A DNA stretch of 64,000 bases from an uncultured Candidatus Saccharibacteria bacterium. GTDB taxonomy: Bacteria; Patescibacteriota; Minisyncoccia; Phycocordibacterales; UBA9973. Location of the stretch: NCBI GenBank assembly GCA_964469225.1, contig CAYXYC010000001.1, positions 27,556 through 91,555 of the forward strand, in the 5' to 3' direction. Below are positions 11,000 through 42,203 of this stretch, piece by piece. The notes under the pieces are model-generated. The model saw nothing but the letters and a program-made list of their open reading frames with translations. It searched no databases and was not told the origin of the DNA. A program made the position numbers and the translations under genes. Each line of letters begins with the position of its first letter. The first letter of the stretch is position 1.

Positions 11000-13363
11000 G
11001 TGAAGAAACTAACTTCAACGATTATCTTCGTATCTATACTTGCGAGTACATTCTGCGCTCCTTTTTTTGGTAATGGATTTTCTCATTTTCAAATACCTCG
11101 TGCCGAAGCAATAAATGAAGCCAATTCTACTTATGGACTAAGTCAAGAATCTAAAGATGTTTTAAAAGAAGGAGAGGAAGCAAAAAAAGCAACCGCCCCT
11201 GATACCGACCCTGAAATGCTTCCAGCCTGTGGGTTTGATGCTGGGGTGGTACAAGTTGGGAATAGCAACGGAACATTTGTTGGTTGTATTGCTCAGGCAT
11301 TCTATTATGTGCTTTTTGTACCAACATCATATATCTTTGCTCTTTCTGGAATGTTTTTTGATTTCACTTTTGCATATTCTATTGATGATGGATCATACAA
11401 AACACCATTCATTACCCAAGGCTGGGCGCTAATTCGTGATATGGTCAACATGTTCTTTATCTTCGTGCTTCTCTTTGTTGCATTCAAAACAATTCTCAAT
11501 GTTGCGCATGGAAAAACAAAAGAACTTGTAATGAATGTTGTTATCATTGGAATATTGATTAATTTCAGTCTCTTTGCCGCACAAGTGATTGTTGATACAT
11601 CAAATATTCTAGCGCGAGTATTCTACAACGATGACGCAATCAAAATAACTAAGGGTGGTGAGAGGGGTGGTAGCGCACTTTATGACAAAGGAGCAAATGG
11701 TGAAGTGCAACTCTCGGCAGCACTGGTAAATAAAATTAATCCTCAAAACCTTATTAGTCAGGCAAGTAAAGTGAATGACATGTCGACAGTAGGAAACGCG
11801 GATTCTGCCTCTGACCTATCGTCAGACGGAGTACGAACACTAACTGCTGGTACATTTATTCTTGTTACAATTCTTGCTTCAATTGTTAATATTGTTGGAA
11901 TATTCACATTTCTTTCGGTTGGACTTATTTTTGTGGCACGAGTTATAGGGCTCTGGTTTGCAATGATTCTTGCACCGCTTGCATTCTTCACATATACCGT
12001 TCCGTCACTTCAAAATGAAAAGATTTTTGGGTGGAAAAGTTGGTGGTCTGATCTTTTCAGGCTGTCATTCCTGGCACCAATTTTTATATTCTTTATGTAT
12101 CTCATCCTTCGTTTCCTTGAAAGTGGAATGAATTTCATTGGTCTTGATAATCTCACTGGGGCTGAGTGGGTAATCGCGATTATCATTCCTTTTATTTTTA
12201 TAATGATAATGCTCCTTCAAGCAAAAAATATTGCAAAGGATTACGCAGGAACTATTGGTCAGACAATTACGAATTATGTTGCGGCAGCGGGAGGGTTTGC
12301 GCTTGCTGTTGGTACAGGCGGGGCAGCAATGATTGGACGAGGTATGGGGGGCATGGCGGCGCGCGCATCAGCAGGAGAGACACTCACACAACGATTTGCT
12401 GACCCAACCAAAAGGGGAACAATGAAATGGTATCAGAAGGCTGCGGGTTGGTCAGGAAACAAGCTTGGTATGAATAAGGTGTTTGGAAAGACCGTAGTTG
12501 GCGGTAGAGCAACAACCGGCGTTGGTGGAATCCTAAATAGGTCACAAGAAAAAGTTAACAAAGTTGATCACGCAAGACACACAGTAGATGAAGCCAAAGA
12601 AAAGGCTGGACTTAAAGATGTTGCATGGTCACGACTATCTGCAATACAACGGGAAAAAGTTCTTACTGAGTTTAAGAAAACAAATAAAGATAAACTCACA
12701 ACGGTGGCAGAGGAAAAAATAAAAAGTGGCTTAGCGTTCGATACCAGTGGTAACCCAATTCAAGGCTTCAGTGACTACAAGGCAGATAGACACTTAGACG
12801 AAGAACAAGCATACAGAGTGGCCAAGGGTATTACAGGAATGACACCACTAACAGCACCACAACAGGATGAATTAAACAAAAGAAAACTTGCGCTTGATAA
12901 AAAAATTAATAGCGACTACGAGAATACCATACTTAAACCAAATATTAATTTACAAGTATCAGTAGAAGCAGAAAAAGAATTTGAACACGAAAAAGAAGAA
13001 TCCAACAAACAAGTTTCCGGATTCACCCGCGCGACATCTCAGGCAAACACTGGTAGTTGGAATGTTAGCAATCTTTCACAACTTAAACAAGATAAAAGAG
13101 AAGGTGTATTTACCAAGGCCGCAACAGTAAGCACAGCACTTTTGAGTGGGCAATTACGCAATGCAATTGGAGCAATTGGCTTTAAATATGGAAAAGGAGC
13201 AACCGGTGAAGAAAAATACACCAACCAAAGCAAATTTATTGATGATTTGAAAAACGGTATTGCTGAAGCATTCAAAACAGCCAACATTAATGTAACAGTT
13301 AACACCGGCGGTAGTGGAGGAGAAAAGAAAAAAGATGATCACGGTGGCGGAGGGCATCACTAA
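11000..13363 (+). CDS. VirB6/TrbL-like polytopic membrane protein with long hydrophilic C-terminal extension (T4SS-like channel component candidate)
   Basis: Signal-like N-terminus, then at least 6 strongly hydrophobic helices (about 100-420 aa), then a ~350-aa K/E-rich tail ending GGSGGEKKKDDHGGGGHH. Its position upstream of VirB3/VirB4-like genes mirrors Tn916 orf15-17. Confidence 0.45.
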   Translation: MKKLTSTIIFVSILASTFCAPFFGNGFSHFQIPRAEAINEANSTYGLSQESKDVLKEGEEAKKATAPDTDPEMLPACGFDAGVVQVGNSNGTFVGCIAQAFYYVLFVPTSYIFALSGMFFDFTFAYSIDDGSYKTPFITQGWALIRDMVNMFFIFVLLFVAFKTILNVAHGKTKELVMNVVIIGILINFSLFAAQVIVDTSNILARVFYNDDAIKITKGGERGGSALYDKGANGEVQLSAALVNKINPQNLISQASKVNDMSTVGNADSASDLSSDGVRTLTAGTFILVTILASIVNIVGIFTFLSVGLIFVARVIGLWFAMILAPLAFFTYTVPSLQNEKIFGWKSWWSDLFRLSFLAPIFIFFMYLILRFLESGMNFIGLDNLTGAEWVIAIIIPFIFIMIMLLQAKNIAKDYAGTIGQTITNYVAAAGGFALAVGTGGAAMIGRGMGGMAARASAGETLTQRFADPTKRGTMKWYQKAAGWSGNKLGMNKVFGKTVVGGRATTGVGGILNRSQEKVNKVDHARHTVDEAKEKAGLKDVAWSRLSAIQREKVLTEFKKTNKDKLTTVAEEKIKSGLAFDTSGNPIQGFSDYKADRHLDEEQAYRVAKGITGMTPLTAPQQDELNKRKLALDKKINSDYENTILKPNINLQVSVEAEKEFEHEKEESNKQVSGFTRATSQANTGSWNVSNLSQLKQDKREGVFTKAATVSTALLSGQLRNAIGAIGFKYGKGATGEEKYTNQSKFIDDLKNGIAEAFKTANINVTVNTGGSGGEKKKDDHGGGGHH

Positions 13364-13384
13364 TTAAATAATTTATTAACATGA

Positions 13385-13664
13385 ATCCCGTTAGAGATTA
13401 TTCATGTTCTATTACACTTACATTTTAAAAAGCAAAAAAGATGGTAGGATATACACTGGATATACAAAAGATTTACGGAAGCGCCTAACACAACACAACG
13501 AAGGTTTATCTACACATACAAAAAACAGGGGTCCATTTATTATTATTTATTACGAAGCATGTATGTCAGAAGAAAAAGCACGGTCGAGAGAATTATATTT
13601 AAAATCTGGTATGGGCAAGCGTTATTTAAAAAATAGATTAGGCGCTTCCTATCTCTAACGGGAT
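13385..13664. repeat. 14-bp perfect inverted repeat pair flanking the GIY-YIG ORF
   Basis: atcccgttagagat (13385-13398) and atctctaacgggat (13651-13664). Confidence 0.7.
13404..13658 (+). CDS. GIY-YIG nuclease family small protein
   Basis: YYTYILKSKKDGRIYTGYTKDLRKRLTQHN matches the GIY-x10-YIG plus R...H/N core; 84 aa. Confidence 0.7.
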   Translation: MFYYTYILKSKKDGRIYTGYTKDLRKRLTQHNEGLSTHTKNRGPFIIIYYEACMSEEKARSRELYLKSGMGKRYLKNRLGASYL

Positions 13665-14721
13665 GAATCAAGAACAACTACAAAAATTAATCGTTGAAAT
13701 GCACAGCAAGCTCTCACCAAGGGCGCAAGAAGTTTTTTCGTCAATGGTGTGGGCTGATACTCTATCTCTGATTGAGAAAAAATATGCGCTCAATGAAACA
13801 CAAATCAGGACACTTGGAACAGAAACAACCCTTGCACTCTTGGGTGTTATTGGAATTGATGAATATGAGAAAGAGGTTGCTCGCGCCCTTGCTCACCCTG
13901 ATGAAATTACAAAAAAGATTCTTGCTGAAATTCGCGAACGAATTTTCTCGGGAATCGTGCAAGACCTAGCCGATGCGCATAGCAAAAACAAAGACAAACA
14001 AATATCAATCGAAGGATACACAGACCCGAGGTTTGCTGGCTTGCCACCGCTACTTCTAAAAGCAATTTCAGAATCAGGGTATCAGAAAAAACTCTACGAA
14101 CTTGGCACAAAACACAAACTTGCAATTGATACAATGGCAGGACTTGAAGATCTGACGATTCAATTTATGAAAGGGGAGATAGAACCAGCACAATACGAAA
14201 AAGAACTTGTTGCCTCACTCGGAATCAAACCAGATGCAAGTAAAGAAATAGCAAATGATATCAATACAACCATTCTTTTGCCAATTCGCGAACTCATGAA
14301 AAAAGAAGAACAGAAAGCGGTAACAACACCCGATATCCCATTCCCGCCATACCGCCCAACAATTAATGCAACACTCCCAAAGACACAATCAGGAATTCTC
14401 GCTACGGCTGGAATCGAAATGATCCATGACGACTACACACAAAACGACAGAAGTGTTCCAACAACAAAAAACGAAGATGGAGTGCTCACACAAGCAGGTA
14501 TTTCGGTTATTGATGAGAAACGCTCTTTAAACGAAGAACATATTCTACCAAGCCCAAGTAATCGCAATCGCGCGCTTGAAGGAATTGAACACCCGGCAAA
14601 AACAATGACCTCAATTCATGAGGAAAAACTCCAAAAAACAACCACAAGTACACCACAAACAAGTGATTACTCCCTACCTAAAATAGGTGGTGGTGATATA
14701 TACCGAGAACCAATCGGATAA
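13663..14721 (+). CDS. hypothetical acidic protein
   Basis: 352-aa ORF with no recognised motifs; its start codon lies inside the right inverted-repeat arm flanking the GIY-YIG ORF. Confidence 0.45.
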   Translation: MNQEQLQKLIVEMHSKLSPRAQEVFSSMVWADTLSLIEKKYALNETQIRTLGTETTLALLGVIGIDEYEKEVARALAHPDEITKKILAEIRERIFSGIVQDLADAHSKNKDKQISIEGYTDPRFAGLPPLLLKAISESGYQKKLYELGTKHKLAIDTMAGLEDLTIQFMKGEIEPAQYEKELVASLGIKPDASKEIANDINTTILLPIRELMKKEEQKAVTTPDIPFPPYRPTINATLPKTQSGILATAGIEMIHDDYTQNDRSVPTTKNEDGVLTQAGISVIDEKRSLNEEHILPSPSNRNRALEGIEHPAKTMTSIHEEKLQKTTTSTPQTSDYSLPKIGGGDIYREPIG

Positions 14722-40911: not shown

Positions 40912-41430
40912 GTGTTACGATACATCTATATGAACAATCTTGAACAGGTAAAAAAAGACAGTATAAATCTTGCTGGTGGGGCGGTGCATTTTGTGCTCTC
41001 TCATTCATATATAATGTTTCTCGTAGCAATTGTTGTTGGGATAATTCTTCAAATGTTTGTTCCGATTACTTTGTTTGGCAATGGAATTTCATCGTATGTT
41101 GGACTCGGGATGATTATTCTAGGGTCAATGCTAATTTATTGGGCACAATCATCATCACACCAAAGTGAGGCTAGAATGAGAAAAGAGGGAACCCCCCGAG
41201 TTTTTGATCATGGTCCATACAAGTACAGCCGAAACCCAACTCACATTGGTTTATCAGTTATGACAATTGGACTTGGAGTAGTACTTAATTCATTTTTTAT
41301 TTTTATTTTACTTATCATTGCTTCGCTAATTTCAAAATTCATTTTCTTAAAAAAGGAAGAAGCAATTCTCGAAGAAAAATACGGTGAGCCATATCGAGAA
41401 TACAAGCAAAAGGTTCACACATGGGTATGA
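40912..41430 (+). CDS. isoprenylcysteine carboxyl methyltransferase / phospholipid methyltransferase family membrane protein
   Basis: Multi-TM; HGPYKYSRNPTHIG motif typical of the ICMT/PEMT family. Confidence 0.6.
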   Translation: MLRYIYMNNLEQVKKDSINLAGGAVHFVLSHSYIMFLVAIVVGIILQMFVPITLFGNGISSYVGLGMIILGSMLIYWAQSSSHQSEARMRKEGTPRVFDHGPYKYSRNPTHIGLSVMTIGLGVVLNSFFIFILLIIASLISKFIFLKKEEAILEEKYGEPYREYKQKVHTWV

Positions 41431-41567
41431 TCCCGCCTGAGACCCTGCCTTTGCCGGCAGGCGCGGTCACGGTTTACTAAATACGGGTACACATATAATT
41501 ATTTACTTATTTTTATAGCACAGTAGAACGGTTCACTACATACGGACCGCGACCTGTCTCTAACAGG

Positions 41568-42203
41568 ATGATATATATTCTTGCTGGTACTGACACAAAA
41601 AAGAAAAACAAAGAAGAGCAATCGCTTGTAGGCAATCGCGAGCGTATTGCGCTATCGCTATCACTTGTATCAAAACAGGCGCTTGAAGAATATGCGTCAT
41701 CAAAAAGTTTGTTTGGCGAATCACCAGTTGTTGTGCTTGAAAATATATTTGCCGAGACCGACTTTTTTGCAAATGCGAAAGACCTAGAAATGCTCGCCGA
41801 ATCAGAAACACTTTTTATTTTTAACGAAGATTCATTCCTCGTTTCTGCCGAAAAGAAATATCAAAAATATGCAAAAACAATTCGCTTTGATTCTGTAAAA
41901 GAAAAAAATGCACCCAAAATTGATCCATTTAAGGTTGCAAATCTTTTTGCCAAGAGAGACAAAATTGGTGCATGGACGGCACTTGTTGAATCACTAGAAG
42001 CCGGCACTCCACCAGAATCAATATCAGGAACTCTTTTTTGGAAAATTAAAACAATGATTCTCTCGGGTGCGCGTACATTCTCTCGTGAAGAGCTTGTTGG
42101 ATTTTCATCTCTTCTAGTTGCTCTGTATCACGATGCACACAGTGGAAAACAAGATTTTGCTATTGGACTTGAAAAATTTGTTCTCTCAACTCTTGCGAAA
42201 TAA
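41568..42203 (+). CDS. hypothetical protein (weak resemblance to DNA polymerase III delta subunit)
   Basis: 211-aa ORF; pattern-level similarity only. Confidence 0.3.
   Translation: MIYILAGTDTKKKNKEEQSLVGNRERIALSLSLVSKQALEEYASSKSLFGESPVVVLENIFAETDFFANAKDLEMLAESETLFIFNEDSFLVSAEKKYQKYAKTIRFDSVKEKNAPKIDPFKVANLFAKRDKIGAWTALVESLEAGTPPESISGTLFWKIKTMILSGARTFSREELVGFSSLLVALYHDAHSGKQDFAIGLEKFVLSTLAK

Follow-up and report, generated by a model that had tools for sequence, protein, structure and literature searches.

Ssn proteins are single-domain GIY-YIG nucleases that cleave single-stranded DNA (ssDNA) beside hairpin repeats flanking their own genes; the IS-like layout of Ssn/NTS was remarked on by its authors, and for SsnA/NTS of Neisseria a role in restricting or modulating incoming ssDNA has been proposed (Chenal et al., Nat Commun 2025, PMC11893778). 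This system, described in 2025, is the closest known to the element discussed here, which lies in a 64,000-nucleotide stretch of DNA (hereafter the window) from an uncultured member of the Patescibacteria (CPR). Other kinds of mobile DNA also offer points of comparison. IS200/IS605 and REP/RAYT (REPtron) elements are small, have DNA-hairpin ends that are recognised in ssDNA, and come with many ORF-less hairpin copies; their HUH/Y1 transposase works through a covalent intermediate, and no target duplication is left. Known MITEs come from DDE-type IS elements. To our knowledge, a GIY-YIG enzyme is not among the listed bacterial transposase types, and we found none in full-text literature searches. 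We consider it likely that positions 13386-13663 of the window are a 278-bp copy of a very small mobile DNA element whose family is widespread in the ultra-small Patescibacteria, and this family appears to be an undescribed kind of mini-transposon.

Two stems and one small gene

Full-length copies are approximately 276 bp long, with the conserved ends T-CCCGTTAGAGAT ... ATCTCTAACGGG-A. They consist of a 13-bp terminal (outer) stem, an inner stem with 10 bp or more, separated from the right arm only by one unpaired T, and one gene in between, coding for a stand-alone GIY-YIG nuclease of 84-88 aa. For the window copy (Table 1), the first-pass annotation had reported an 84-aa GIY-YIG ORF, a perfect 14-bp inverted repeat around it (13385-13398, ATCCCGTTAGAGAT, and 13651-13664, ATCTCTAACGGGAT), and a right arm overlapping both the ORF stop and the downstream ATG. 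All three are present: the protein matches PF01541 over residues 3-69 in Pfam (E=1.4e-18; 67.4 bits vs. a cut-off of 22.6), and the right arm spans the stop TAA (13656-13658) together with the A and T of the ATG at 13663. At up to two mismatches, the 14-mer has three matches in the 64 kb vs. 0.23 expected, a number reached in none of 100 shuffles. That annotation had missed a second perfect inverted repeat of 12 bp, with both arms within the ORF and a single T (13650) parting it from the right outer arm, as well as a direct repeat, ATGAA(TC), at 13381-13387 and 13663-13669. The nuclease stop in this copy is 4 nt ahead of the host start (TAAcgggATG), and in a sister subgroup the two overlap (ATGA).

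Table 1. Features of the window copy and its host gene, with related copies and the reconstructed empty site
Feature	Position or length	Strand	Sequence and remarks
Left copy of duplicated target	13381..13385	+	ATGAA; original host start codon plus 2 nt; strict repeat TGAA 13382-13385
Left terminal arm (outer stem, 5' strand)	13386..13398	+	TCCCGTTAGAGAT; conserved in 71 aligned copies
GIY-YIG nuclease gene, 84 aa, single domain	13404..13658	+	ATG...TAA; stop inside right arm
Inner stem, 5' arm	13477..13488	+	GGAAGCGCCTAA; codes for part of the conserved LRKRL motif
Inner stem, 3' arm	13638..13649	+	TTAGGCGCTTCC; followed by unpaired T 13650, then the right terminal arm
Right terminal arm (outer stem, 3' strand)	13651..13663	+	ATCTCTAACGGGA; A13663 is base 1 of the host start codon
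Host gene (p352), 352 aa	13663..14721	+	Start codon targeted; no Pfam family; T4SS-like cluster
Right copy of direct repeat	13664..13667	+	TGAA; A13663 and TGAA rebuild the host ATG
Second family member, ORF-less, degenerate	41431..41568 (138 bp)	+	ATGA / TCCCGCCTGAGAC...GGACCGCGACC-T-GTCTCTAACAGGA / TGAT
Minimal element (locus L074)	46 nt		ATGAA-TCCCGTTAGAGGCC...GCCTCTAACGGGA-TGAAA
Reconstructed empty-site duplex			...AACATGAATCAAG...

Across the aligned copies, the 13 outer and 10 inner pairs are 98.7% paired, a level reached in none of 500 shuffles, and slid controls are 31-48% paired. Double changes occur in eight stem pairs (59 cells). The end pair of the outer stem is compensatory (T/A in 62 and C/G in 8 of 71 aligned copies), and double changes in the inner stem include alignment columns 108/273 (GC 51, AU 16), 112/269 (CG 50, UA 20), and 111/270 (CG 65, UA 3, AU 1). 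Sequence comparison thus indicates that both stems are maintained through compensatory changes. Because both stems covary, the long-range pairing that the annotation had put forward is supported as pairing, and in the RNA fold that it had proposed as a check the MFE and centroid structures contain both stems (z -3.84), as do those of the DNA fold (z -2.65). Stem mismatches are G.T in 13 cases and A.C in 11, a wobble asymmetry that gives no signal as to DNA vs. RNA or as to strand, and Rfam holds no family that matches the element. A local 9-bp hairpin (13378-13386/13400-13408), to which the annotation had also pointed, does exist in the window copy; we reject it as a functional part and regard it as incidental because it is not conserved, with pairing of 6 bp or more in just two of the 72 full-length copies (9 bp in the window, 7 bp in another). 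Guide-like pairing between spacer and target was likewise rejected because the spacer is free to vary.

The nuclease has the marks of the GIY-YIG superfamily, with a score above the curated threshold, a beta-beta-alpha-beta-alpha core, and the Tyr/Tyr/Arg/Glu residues kept. Y4, Y6, Y17, G19, R25-K26-R27, H31, and E51 are invariant across 26 sequences, and the AF2 model (pLDDT 91.5) has strands at 3-10, 16-21, and 45-53 and helices at 24-32 and 56-67. The ORF is intact in 70 of 71 homologues with a median dN/dS of 0.11, from which the protein is judged to be under purifying selection and functional. Its best matches in sequence and structure are the UPF0213/COG2827 proteins (BH0048, 1ZG2; EF2693, 1YWL; YazA) and the Slx1 domain. 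BH0048 is the best match in sequence (E 6e-9, 38% identity), phmmer gives E 6.3e-9 and 5.5e-6 for BH0048 and EF2693, and Foldseek with the model matches UPF0213 at E 4.5e-6 and 38% identity. Slx1, a structure-selective nuclease that acts on branched DNA according to the PDB titles of 6SEI and 7CQ4, matches the model at TM 0.68-0.71 and rmsd 1.5-1.8 A, and I-TevI resembles it only marginally in fold (E about 0.8). TIGR01453 scores the protein at 20.4 bits, below its cut-off of 56. Like the Ssn family, the protein is a single domain, with 84 aa and no second domain; no proteobacterial Ssn-type match occurs among its sequence and fold neighbours. Indirect signs in sequence and model therefore point to a place in the UPF0213/Slx1 branch rather than with Ssn (CDD cd10448), and by this kinship the nuclease may be structure-selective.

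Copies, empty sites, and start codons

We catalogued 98 elements, 72 full-length and 26 ORF-less, in 80 fetched related loci (0.57 Mb), and at least 422 relatives occur among GTDB species genomes; no relatives were found on viral contigs. The ORF-less copies, of 45-120 bp, keep just the two stems; they retain an equivalent hairpin ending ...CC-T beside the right arm and fold as full-length copies do. Copies with identical ends occupy more than 70 different gene contexts, several may occur in one genome (for example three in LBZL01), and one pair lies in tandem (L058/L059). Counting against a mobile element, copies inside one genome are just ~89-91% identical. As for further copies, for which the annotation had proposed a search of the genome, tblastn and blastn found no second full ORF or element copy in the window; there is a degenerate ORF-less one, missed earlier, between two genes whose overlap would otherwise be ATGA. 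Taken together, the family has what is expected of a generic DNA transposon with MITE derivatives: terminal inverted repeats, target duplication, many unrelated sites, empty orthologous sites, and ORF-less derivatives.

Empty sites were found by the comparison with orthologous T4SS loci that had been suggested as a check. Downstream Pfam matches to PrgI and to TraG/VirB4-type P-loop proteins support the T4SS-like nature of the cluster; the VirB6-like label that the annotation gave to the upstream 787-aa protein has no Pfam support. In the compared loci, the cluster order is VirB6-like, p352, PrgI, TraC-like, VirB4. Four of them (L005, L023, L033, and L100) lack the insert and run from the VirB6-like stop through a short spacer straight into the p352 ATG, where the orthologues start ATGAAT/ATGGAC...GAATTACAACAA, and a fifth (L101) has a solo left arm alone at this site, a scar. 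Since the nearest p352 orthologue is just 44% identical, the comparison was made by gene order and conserved junction; the exact reconstructed empty site had no match in metagenome contigs. The window without 13386-13667 has the layout of the empty orthologous loci, and by this comparison the element at the p352 start is an insertion rather than ancestral sequence. The small, probably selfish insertion that the annotation had envisaged is thus strongly supported by the empty clusters, the range of contexts, and the several copies per genome.

Insertion is essentially directed at start codons. Of the 98 elements, 85 lie immediately upstream of the ATG or GTG start of a host ORF (70-1029 aa), with the element's last base as base 1 of the codon, and none of the 98 has an ORF opening on the other strand, so that element and host gene are co-oriented. 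The end pair is T/A in 83/98 and C/G in 13/98, and the host start is therefore ATG or GTG. The target consensus is A-T-G-N-A, of which TGNN, 3-5 bp, is duplicated: 42 of the 98 elements have an exact direct repeat of 4 bp, 16 have one of 3 bp, and 8 have one of 5 bp. Repeats of 3-5 bp thus accompany 66/98 elements vs. 9/98 in a control with flanks displaced by 7 nt (mostly 0-1 bp). It counts against a mobile element that an exact repeat is absent in 27/98 and that the length varies from 3 to 5 bp. Repeats of 4 bp also occur at non-ATG sites (CTAA at L011, TTAA at L056), and in a related strain (L084) ATGGA stands on either side of the element. The host genes, which stay intact after insertion, are unrelated and often essential, among them FtsH, LeuRS, Topo I, TrmD, RuvX, RpiB, and a T4SS coupling protein. 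Genomes with an element at the PrgI start differ in the repeat there (TGC, TGCA, or TGCAA), and the copies at this site are not mutual nearest relatives; this start was evidently hit independently more than once.

Proposed mechanism and rival explanations

More tentatively, the 84-aa GIY-YIG protein may itself mobilise the element, and the family would then be a new class of transposable elements in prokaryotes, the smallest autonomous one known (~276 bp), in which a two-stem DNA junction is recognised, instead of duplex ends being bound by sequence, and start codons are targeted; this is a serious possibility that falls somewhat short of probable. We infer a mechanism in which the nuclease would recognise the two-stem junction of the single-stranded or cruciform-extruded element, much as its relatives do, Slx1 on branched DNA and Ssn on ssDNA hairpins, and would cleave each strand where the outer stem has its 5' foot, at the A^T step. 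At ATGNA targets, it would make a staggered cut of ~4 nt with 3' overhangs, and gap-filling and ligation by the host would yield the direct repeats. GIY-YIG enzymes are hydrolytic and we know of none that acts as a transposase, and for this reason the joining step is left to host enzymes. The element's own last base (A, or G in variants) completes the new host ATG or GTG, and the host gene may be kept expressed via translational coupling from the nuclease ORF.

Recent movement is not visible among the copies: identical nuclease proteins on 22-24 contigs always occupy one site, with no recent jump seen, and we found neither identical copies at different sites nor, in metagenome contigs, a polymorphic empty allele. 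Such stability, alongside the strong purifying selection, would also fit a domesticated Ssn-like system, in which the nuclease serves the host, for example to restrict or modulate incoming ssDNA in uptake or conjugation at dispersed hairpins, and the elements have ceased to move. Ssn is a precedent for this, the flanking DNA contains about one dispersed hairpin copy per 20 kb, and the association with T4SS-like, ssDNA-handling clusters is recurrent. However, (past) mobility is suggested by several nuclease copies per genome, each in its own hairpin, and by independent hits of one site that differ in repeat length, and a host function leaves start-codon targeting unaccounted for. We consider domestication unlikely, and it is not exclusive of a mobile element.

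It is also conceivable, if quite unlikely, that the locus is a host regulatory module, in which long-range mRNA stems sequester or present the start codon and couple translation to the small ORF, the DNA repeats being a by-product. In its favour, the element invariably lies immediately upstream of a start codon and in the orientation of the gene, the A of the AUG belongs to the outer stem, the ORF stop precedes or overlaps the host start, and the stems covary and are predicted in RNA folds. Yet the genes served are functionally unrelated, and regulation would leave the direct repeats, the scar, the tandem copies, and the empty orthologous sites unaccounted for; neither the missing Rfam family nor the lack of a G.U excess over A.C mismatches favours it. 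Only 3/15 short copies have a uORF that starts at the left ATG and stops close to the host start, and uORF-based translational coupling was rejected as a general rule for these copies.

Least probable, and very much so, is the homing-endonuclease-like cassette of the first-pass annotation (T4 seg/mob-like, with a double-strand break in the empty allele and copying from the filled one by homologous recombination): although a small GIY-YIG ORF does lie between two genes, the PrgI, VirB4, rpiB, and p352 sites are filled in several related genomes, and identical copies are fixed at one site over many samples, homing yields neither target duplications nor terminal inverted repeats, cannot account for more than 70 unrelated sites, for ORF-less derivatives, or for one site with different repeat lengths in different genomes, and here involves a bare 84-aa catalytic domain without a DNA-binding domain, nearer to UPF0213/Slx1 than to I-TevI.

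Comparison with known systems

If the mobile-element reading is true, an autonomous element of 276 bp would reset the lower size limit of self-mobilising DNA, and the first base donated to the rebuilt codon would make insertion beside essential genes harmless. The UPF0213 branch of the GIY-YIG proteins, long uncharacterised, would also gain a first function that can be tested. In streamlined CPR genomes, which are almost without intergenic space, start-codon targeting with codon regeneration would be an unusual parasite lifestyle, one that puts foreign ORFs directly ahead of essential genes. With its covarying two-stem junction, the element offers a ready substrate for defining a compact structure-guided nuclease, with a practical interest as for Ssn enzymes. 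For annotation, thousands of genes called "GIY-YIG nuclease / excinuclease ABC subunit C" in CPR genomes probably represent copies of the element.

I-TevI and T4 Seg share with the element the GIY-YIG catalytic core and the intergenic position; however, they are larger (200-250 aa), include a DNA-binding domain, and are accompanied by neither inverted repeats nor duplications. MITEs, the Rickettsia palindromic element, and the Correia element resemble the ORF-less copies of 45-120 bp in their terminal inverted repeats, short direct repeats, and tolerance in or near genes. We know of no MITE or palindromic element that targets start codons and supplies the first base of the codon, and literature searches found none. 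Like IS200/IS605 and REP/RAYT, the family combines a hairpin-flanked nuclease gene with ORF-less hairpin copies, but its sole ORF is a GIY-YIG enzyme rather than an HUH/Y1 transposase, and it makes duplications of 3-5 bp. As for the nearest relatives of the nuclease, neither a function nor a mobile context has been assigned to UPF0213 proteins, and Slx1 carries a RING/PHD domain and needs Slx4, unlike the element nuclease in both cases.

The likeness to Ssn lies in the stand-alone GIY-YIG protein of ~90 aa, the hairpin-forming sequences that bracket its gene, and the short hairpin copies dispersed in the genome (PMC11893778). The SRM consensus of Ssn (HGTCWY...RNCYNB) has no match in the whole window, and the gene is without SRM flanks. 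Each Ssn repeat is a self-contained hairpin of 20-50 nt on each side of the gene, whereas here the ends are halves of one stem; target duplications and start-codon targeting are not reported for Ssn, and the Ssn paper makes no mention of Patescibacteria (PMC11893778). Rather, the gene here sits inside a split stem, with a second, inner stem in addition. Relative to Ssn/NTS, what appears to be new is a nuclease of a different branch, as indirect signs suggest, together with a gene within a split hairpin, direct repeats, and the targeting of start codons.

An inserted element in the T4SS-like cluster

The element in the window (13386–13663) lies in a T4SS-like cluster, directly upstream of a 352-aa host gene (p352). 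The ORF and outer repeat claimed by the first-pass annotation are present (see table), and the right arm spans the TAA of the ORF as well as the leading AT of the following gene's ATG (13663). The 9-bp hairpin that it described around the left arm exists in the window, but is found only here among the copies. The inner repeat, separated from the right outer arm by a single T, was absent from that annotation, as were the flanking direct repeat and the ORF-less relative. This relative is the only further copy in the window, where no second full copy was found; allowing up to two mismatches, the outer-repeat 14-mer has three matches in the whole window against 0.23 expected, and none of 100 shuffles gave three.

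Features of the window copy and of its ORF-less relative
Feature	Position	Evidence
GIY-YIG ORF, 84 aa	13404–13658	Pfam GIY-YIG, E=1.4e-18
Outer inverted repeat, perfect, 14 bp	13385–13398 / 13651–13664	sequence
Inner inverted repeat, perfect, 12 bp, both arms within the ORF	13477–13488 / 13638–13649	sequence
Direct repeat ATGAA flanking the window copy	13381–13385 and 13663–13667	sequence
Degenerate ORF-less relative, 138 bp	41431–41568	window sequence

The window copy is an insertion at this locus, and the inserted cassette suggested by the annotation is borne out by orthologous loci that lack it. The gene order VirB6-like, p352, PrgI, TraC-like p212, VirB4-like is common to 11 of the related loci fetched from other genomes (L-numbers). 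In L005, L023 and L033, p352 starts without an insert, after the VirB6-like stop and a short AT-rich spacer (ATGAAT/ATGGAC...GAATTACAACAA), and L100 has a clean empty site (...gggggacatcacTAAaatataATGGACCAA). Removing 13386–13667 from the window gives ...ggagggcatcacTAAttaaataatttattaacATGAATCAAGAA, the layout of the empty orthologues. L101 (3950–4003) carries a solo left arm at the p352 site (...ggagggcatcacTAAttcgcaATCCCGTTAGAGACacaaaacaaacaatATGGATCAA); this arm, ATCCCGTTAGAGAC, precedes the p352 start by 14 nt, is accompanied by neither a right arm nor an ORF, and looks like a scar left by a former copy. L101 is the closest long orthologous cluster, and its solo arm occupies the same site as the window copy. 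In L042 (2980–3300), a copy with an intact ORF (77% identical) and decayed ends lies between the VirB6-like and p352 genes, with a right-arm-like GTTTCTAACGGG preceding the ORF and p352 lying about 600 bp away. The two closest p352 orthologues in a protein search are 43% and 39% identical; the 352-aa protein is fast-evolving, its best non-self relative being 44% identical. Neither it nor the 787-aa "VirB6-like" protein (11000–13363) has a Pfam match, and the VirB6 name is putative.

The start codons of PrgI (14744), p212 (15200) and VirB4 (15840) are empty in the window and occupied in other genomes. Full or short elements sit at T4SS-like start codons (PrgI, TraC-like, VirB4-like, coupling protein) in many of these, at L004, L005, L013, L018, L019, L023, L026, L033, L042, L043, L047 and L086–L089. 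The string duplicated at the PrgI start is TGC in L005, TGCA in L019 and L043, and TGCAA in L018, L033 and L047, and the copies there are not mutual nearest relatives, which together indicate that this site was hit more than once. About 12 of the 80 fetched loci lie within T4SS-like clusters, which may reflect either a hot spot or some connection with ssDNA transfer.

A family placed at start codons

The finding in the window is confirmed and represents only the visible part of a large family. In a 90%-clustered protein collection, the nuclease has 717 relatives at E<=1e-5, nearly all exactly 84 aa long and >80% identical, the named ones being from Nomurabacteria, Paceibacterota, Woesebacteria and other CPR groups. 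A scan of one genome per species gave at least 422 encoding loci, from which the 80 were fetched. Cataloguing all end pairs in these and the window yielded 73 full-length units (265–285 bp, mode 276) and 26 ORF-less units (45–120 bp) with the same ends, and almost every copy shares the register ...ATGNN-T-CCCGTTAGAGAT...[ORF]...ATCTCTAACGGG-ATGNN.... In several assemblies, two or three full copies occur on separate contigs (LBZL01, for example, with L003, L004 and L018). Members at L058, L060, L063 and L075 are on contigs that binning assigned to Woesearchaeota, Omnitrophica, Scalinduaceae and Desulfobacteraceae, reflecting either transfer out of CPR or mis-binning.

Target-site statistics were taken over 98 of the catalogued units. 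Immediately after ...CGGG stands ATG in 77 and GTG in 8, and these codons open ORFs of 70–1029 aa, with none opening on the opposite strand. The base before CCCG pairs with the base after CGGG as T/A in 83 units and C/G in 13, so that the final base of the element, A or G, also opens the host start codon. Taking the element as [T...A], its flanks repeat each other directly and exactly over 4 bp in 42 of 98 cases, over 3 bp in 16 and over 5 bp in 8, while in control flanks shifted by 7 nt most copies show 0–1 bp. The target consensus is A-T-G-N-A, and rare non-start sites also have 4-bp repeats (CTAA in L011, TTAA in L056). The genes behind the elements have no relation to one another and are in many cases essential; they encode FtsH, leucyl-tRNA synthetase, topoisomerase I, TrmD, RuvX, an RsmE-type methyltransferase, RpiB, 6-phosphogluconate dehydrogenase and a T4SS coupling protein, among others. 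In L058 (3985–4384) and L059 (7–406), a full element is directly followed by a 118-bp ORF-less one, with ATGAAT common to both, and L028 (4259–4290) has an additional left arm after the right end, arrangements consistent with renewed hits on a regenerated target.

In the window subgroup, the nuclease ORF ends at the TAA within the right arm, with 4 nt separating this stop from the host ATG. In a more distant subgroup (L051–L080; alignment columns 260–297), one extra base shifts the frame, and the ORF runs through the right arm into the host ATGA, where it stops at the TGA and overlaps the host start, giving proteins of 86–88 aa. Where the second host codon in this subgroup does not start with A, the ORF extends to 92–95 aa. 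Both layouts are classic for translational coupling, which may operate at the element. The ORF-less relative in the window separates two genes (40912–41430 and 41568–42203) that originally overlapped by ATGA; because ATGA was duplicated, both signals are preserved, the left copy retaining the upstream stop (TGA) and the right copy the downstream start. A uORF from the left ATG to the right-arm TAA occurs in only 3 of 15 ORF-less copies.

Paired stems and the nuclease

Both stems are maintained by compensation. Across 71 full-length copies, scored for 13 outer and 10 inner pairs, 98.7% of cells are paired, and both-sided changes occur in 8 pairs (59 cells); none of 500 shuffles reached any of these values, and slid controls were 31–48% paired. 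The double changes include inner pair 108/273 (GC in 51 copies, AU in 16), inner pair 112/269 (CG in 50, UA in 20) and outer pair 19/279 (UA in 60, CG in 7). Since both inner arms are coding, we attribute the conservation of the inner stem to pairing, not to the protein. ORF-less copies keep the outer stem and an inner hairpin ending ...CC, followed by one T and the right arm. The long-range structure envisaged by the first-pass annotation thus stands as far as pairing goes. MFE and centroid folds of the window copy contain both stems, whether computed for DNA (z −2.65) or for RNA (z −3.84). Mismatches are equally rare (G.T 13, A.C 11), so the data indicate neither the folding strand nor DNA as against RNA action. 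The element has no Rfam family match.

The ORF is intact in 70 of 71 copies (median dN/dS 0.11), with the GIY/YIG tyrosines, RKR arginines, H31 and E51 invariant. Its AF2 model is confident (pLDDT 91.5). By its neighbours in both sequence and fold, the nuclease falls in the UPF0213/Slx1 branch, of which the characterised member is structure-selective: the nearest solved structures by sequence are the UPF0213 proteins BH0048 and EF2693, and by fold BH0048, then the Slx1 nuclease domain (TM 0.68–0.71, rmsd 1.5–1.8 Å). These neighbours, with a marginal I-TevI fold match (E about 0.8), set the protein apart from homing endonucleases and give no support to the homing-endonuclease-like cassette suggested by the annotation. 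Plasmid matches are only Firmicutes YazA-type genes.

Insertion and relation to known systems

A hairpin-ended unit has entered many ATGNA sites, made short duplications and left scars and ORF-less derivatives, and it keeps a selected nuclease. We propose that the two-stem junction, in DNA that is single-stranded or cruciform, would be recognised by the nuclease, which would cut each strand at the outer stem's 5' foot, at an A^T step; A^TCCCG is found there on both strands. Cuts in the target would be staggered by about 4 nt and leave 3' overhangs, a polarity typical of GIY-YIG enzymes, and host polymerase and ligase would complete the insertion. Counting against current activity, identical nuclease proteins on 22–24 contigs occupy one site only, and within-genome copies differ by about 10%. 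At L084 (480–800), in a strain that shares 96.8% identity with the window, the element occupies the same site, and its divergence from the window copy (13381–13667) equals that of the flank (2.2% versus 2.3%). Both flanking repeats change together (ATGGA/ATGGA in L084 versus ATGAA/ATGAA in the window), which fits, without proving, re-insertion or independent insertion.

In the literature searched in full text, which mostly excludes subscription journals, we found no description of a bacterial GIY-YIG element with inverted repeats and duplications, nor of such repeats in CPR genomes, and the family is apparently undescribed. We rate the element as a hairpin-associated single-domain GIY-YIG system, with a substantial chance that it represents a new class of transposable element. 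IS200/IS605 and REP/RAYT likewise use DNA hairpins, but have HUH enzymes and no duplications. The nearest described system is Ssn/NTS, single-domain GIY-YIG ssDNA nucleases whose genes are bracketed by hairpin repeats, in a layout that its authors called IS-like without showing mobility (PMC11893778). Patescibacteria go unmentioned in that paper (PMC11893778), and the Ssn SRM consensus is absent from the window. Unlike Ssn/NTS, the CPR element has two ends that together make up a single stem enclosing the gene; it also duplicates its target and is directed to start codons, and its nuclease resembles UPF0213/Slx1.
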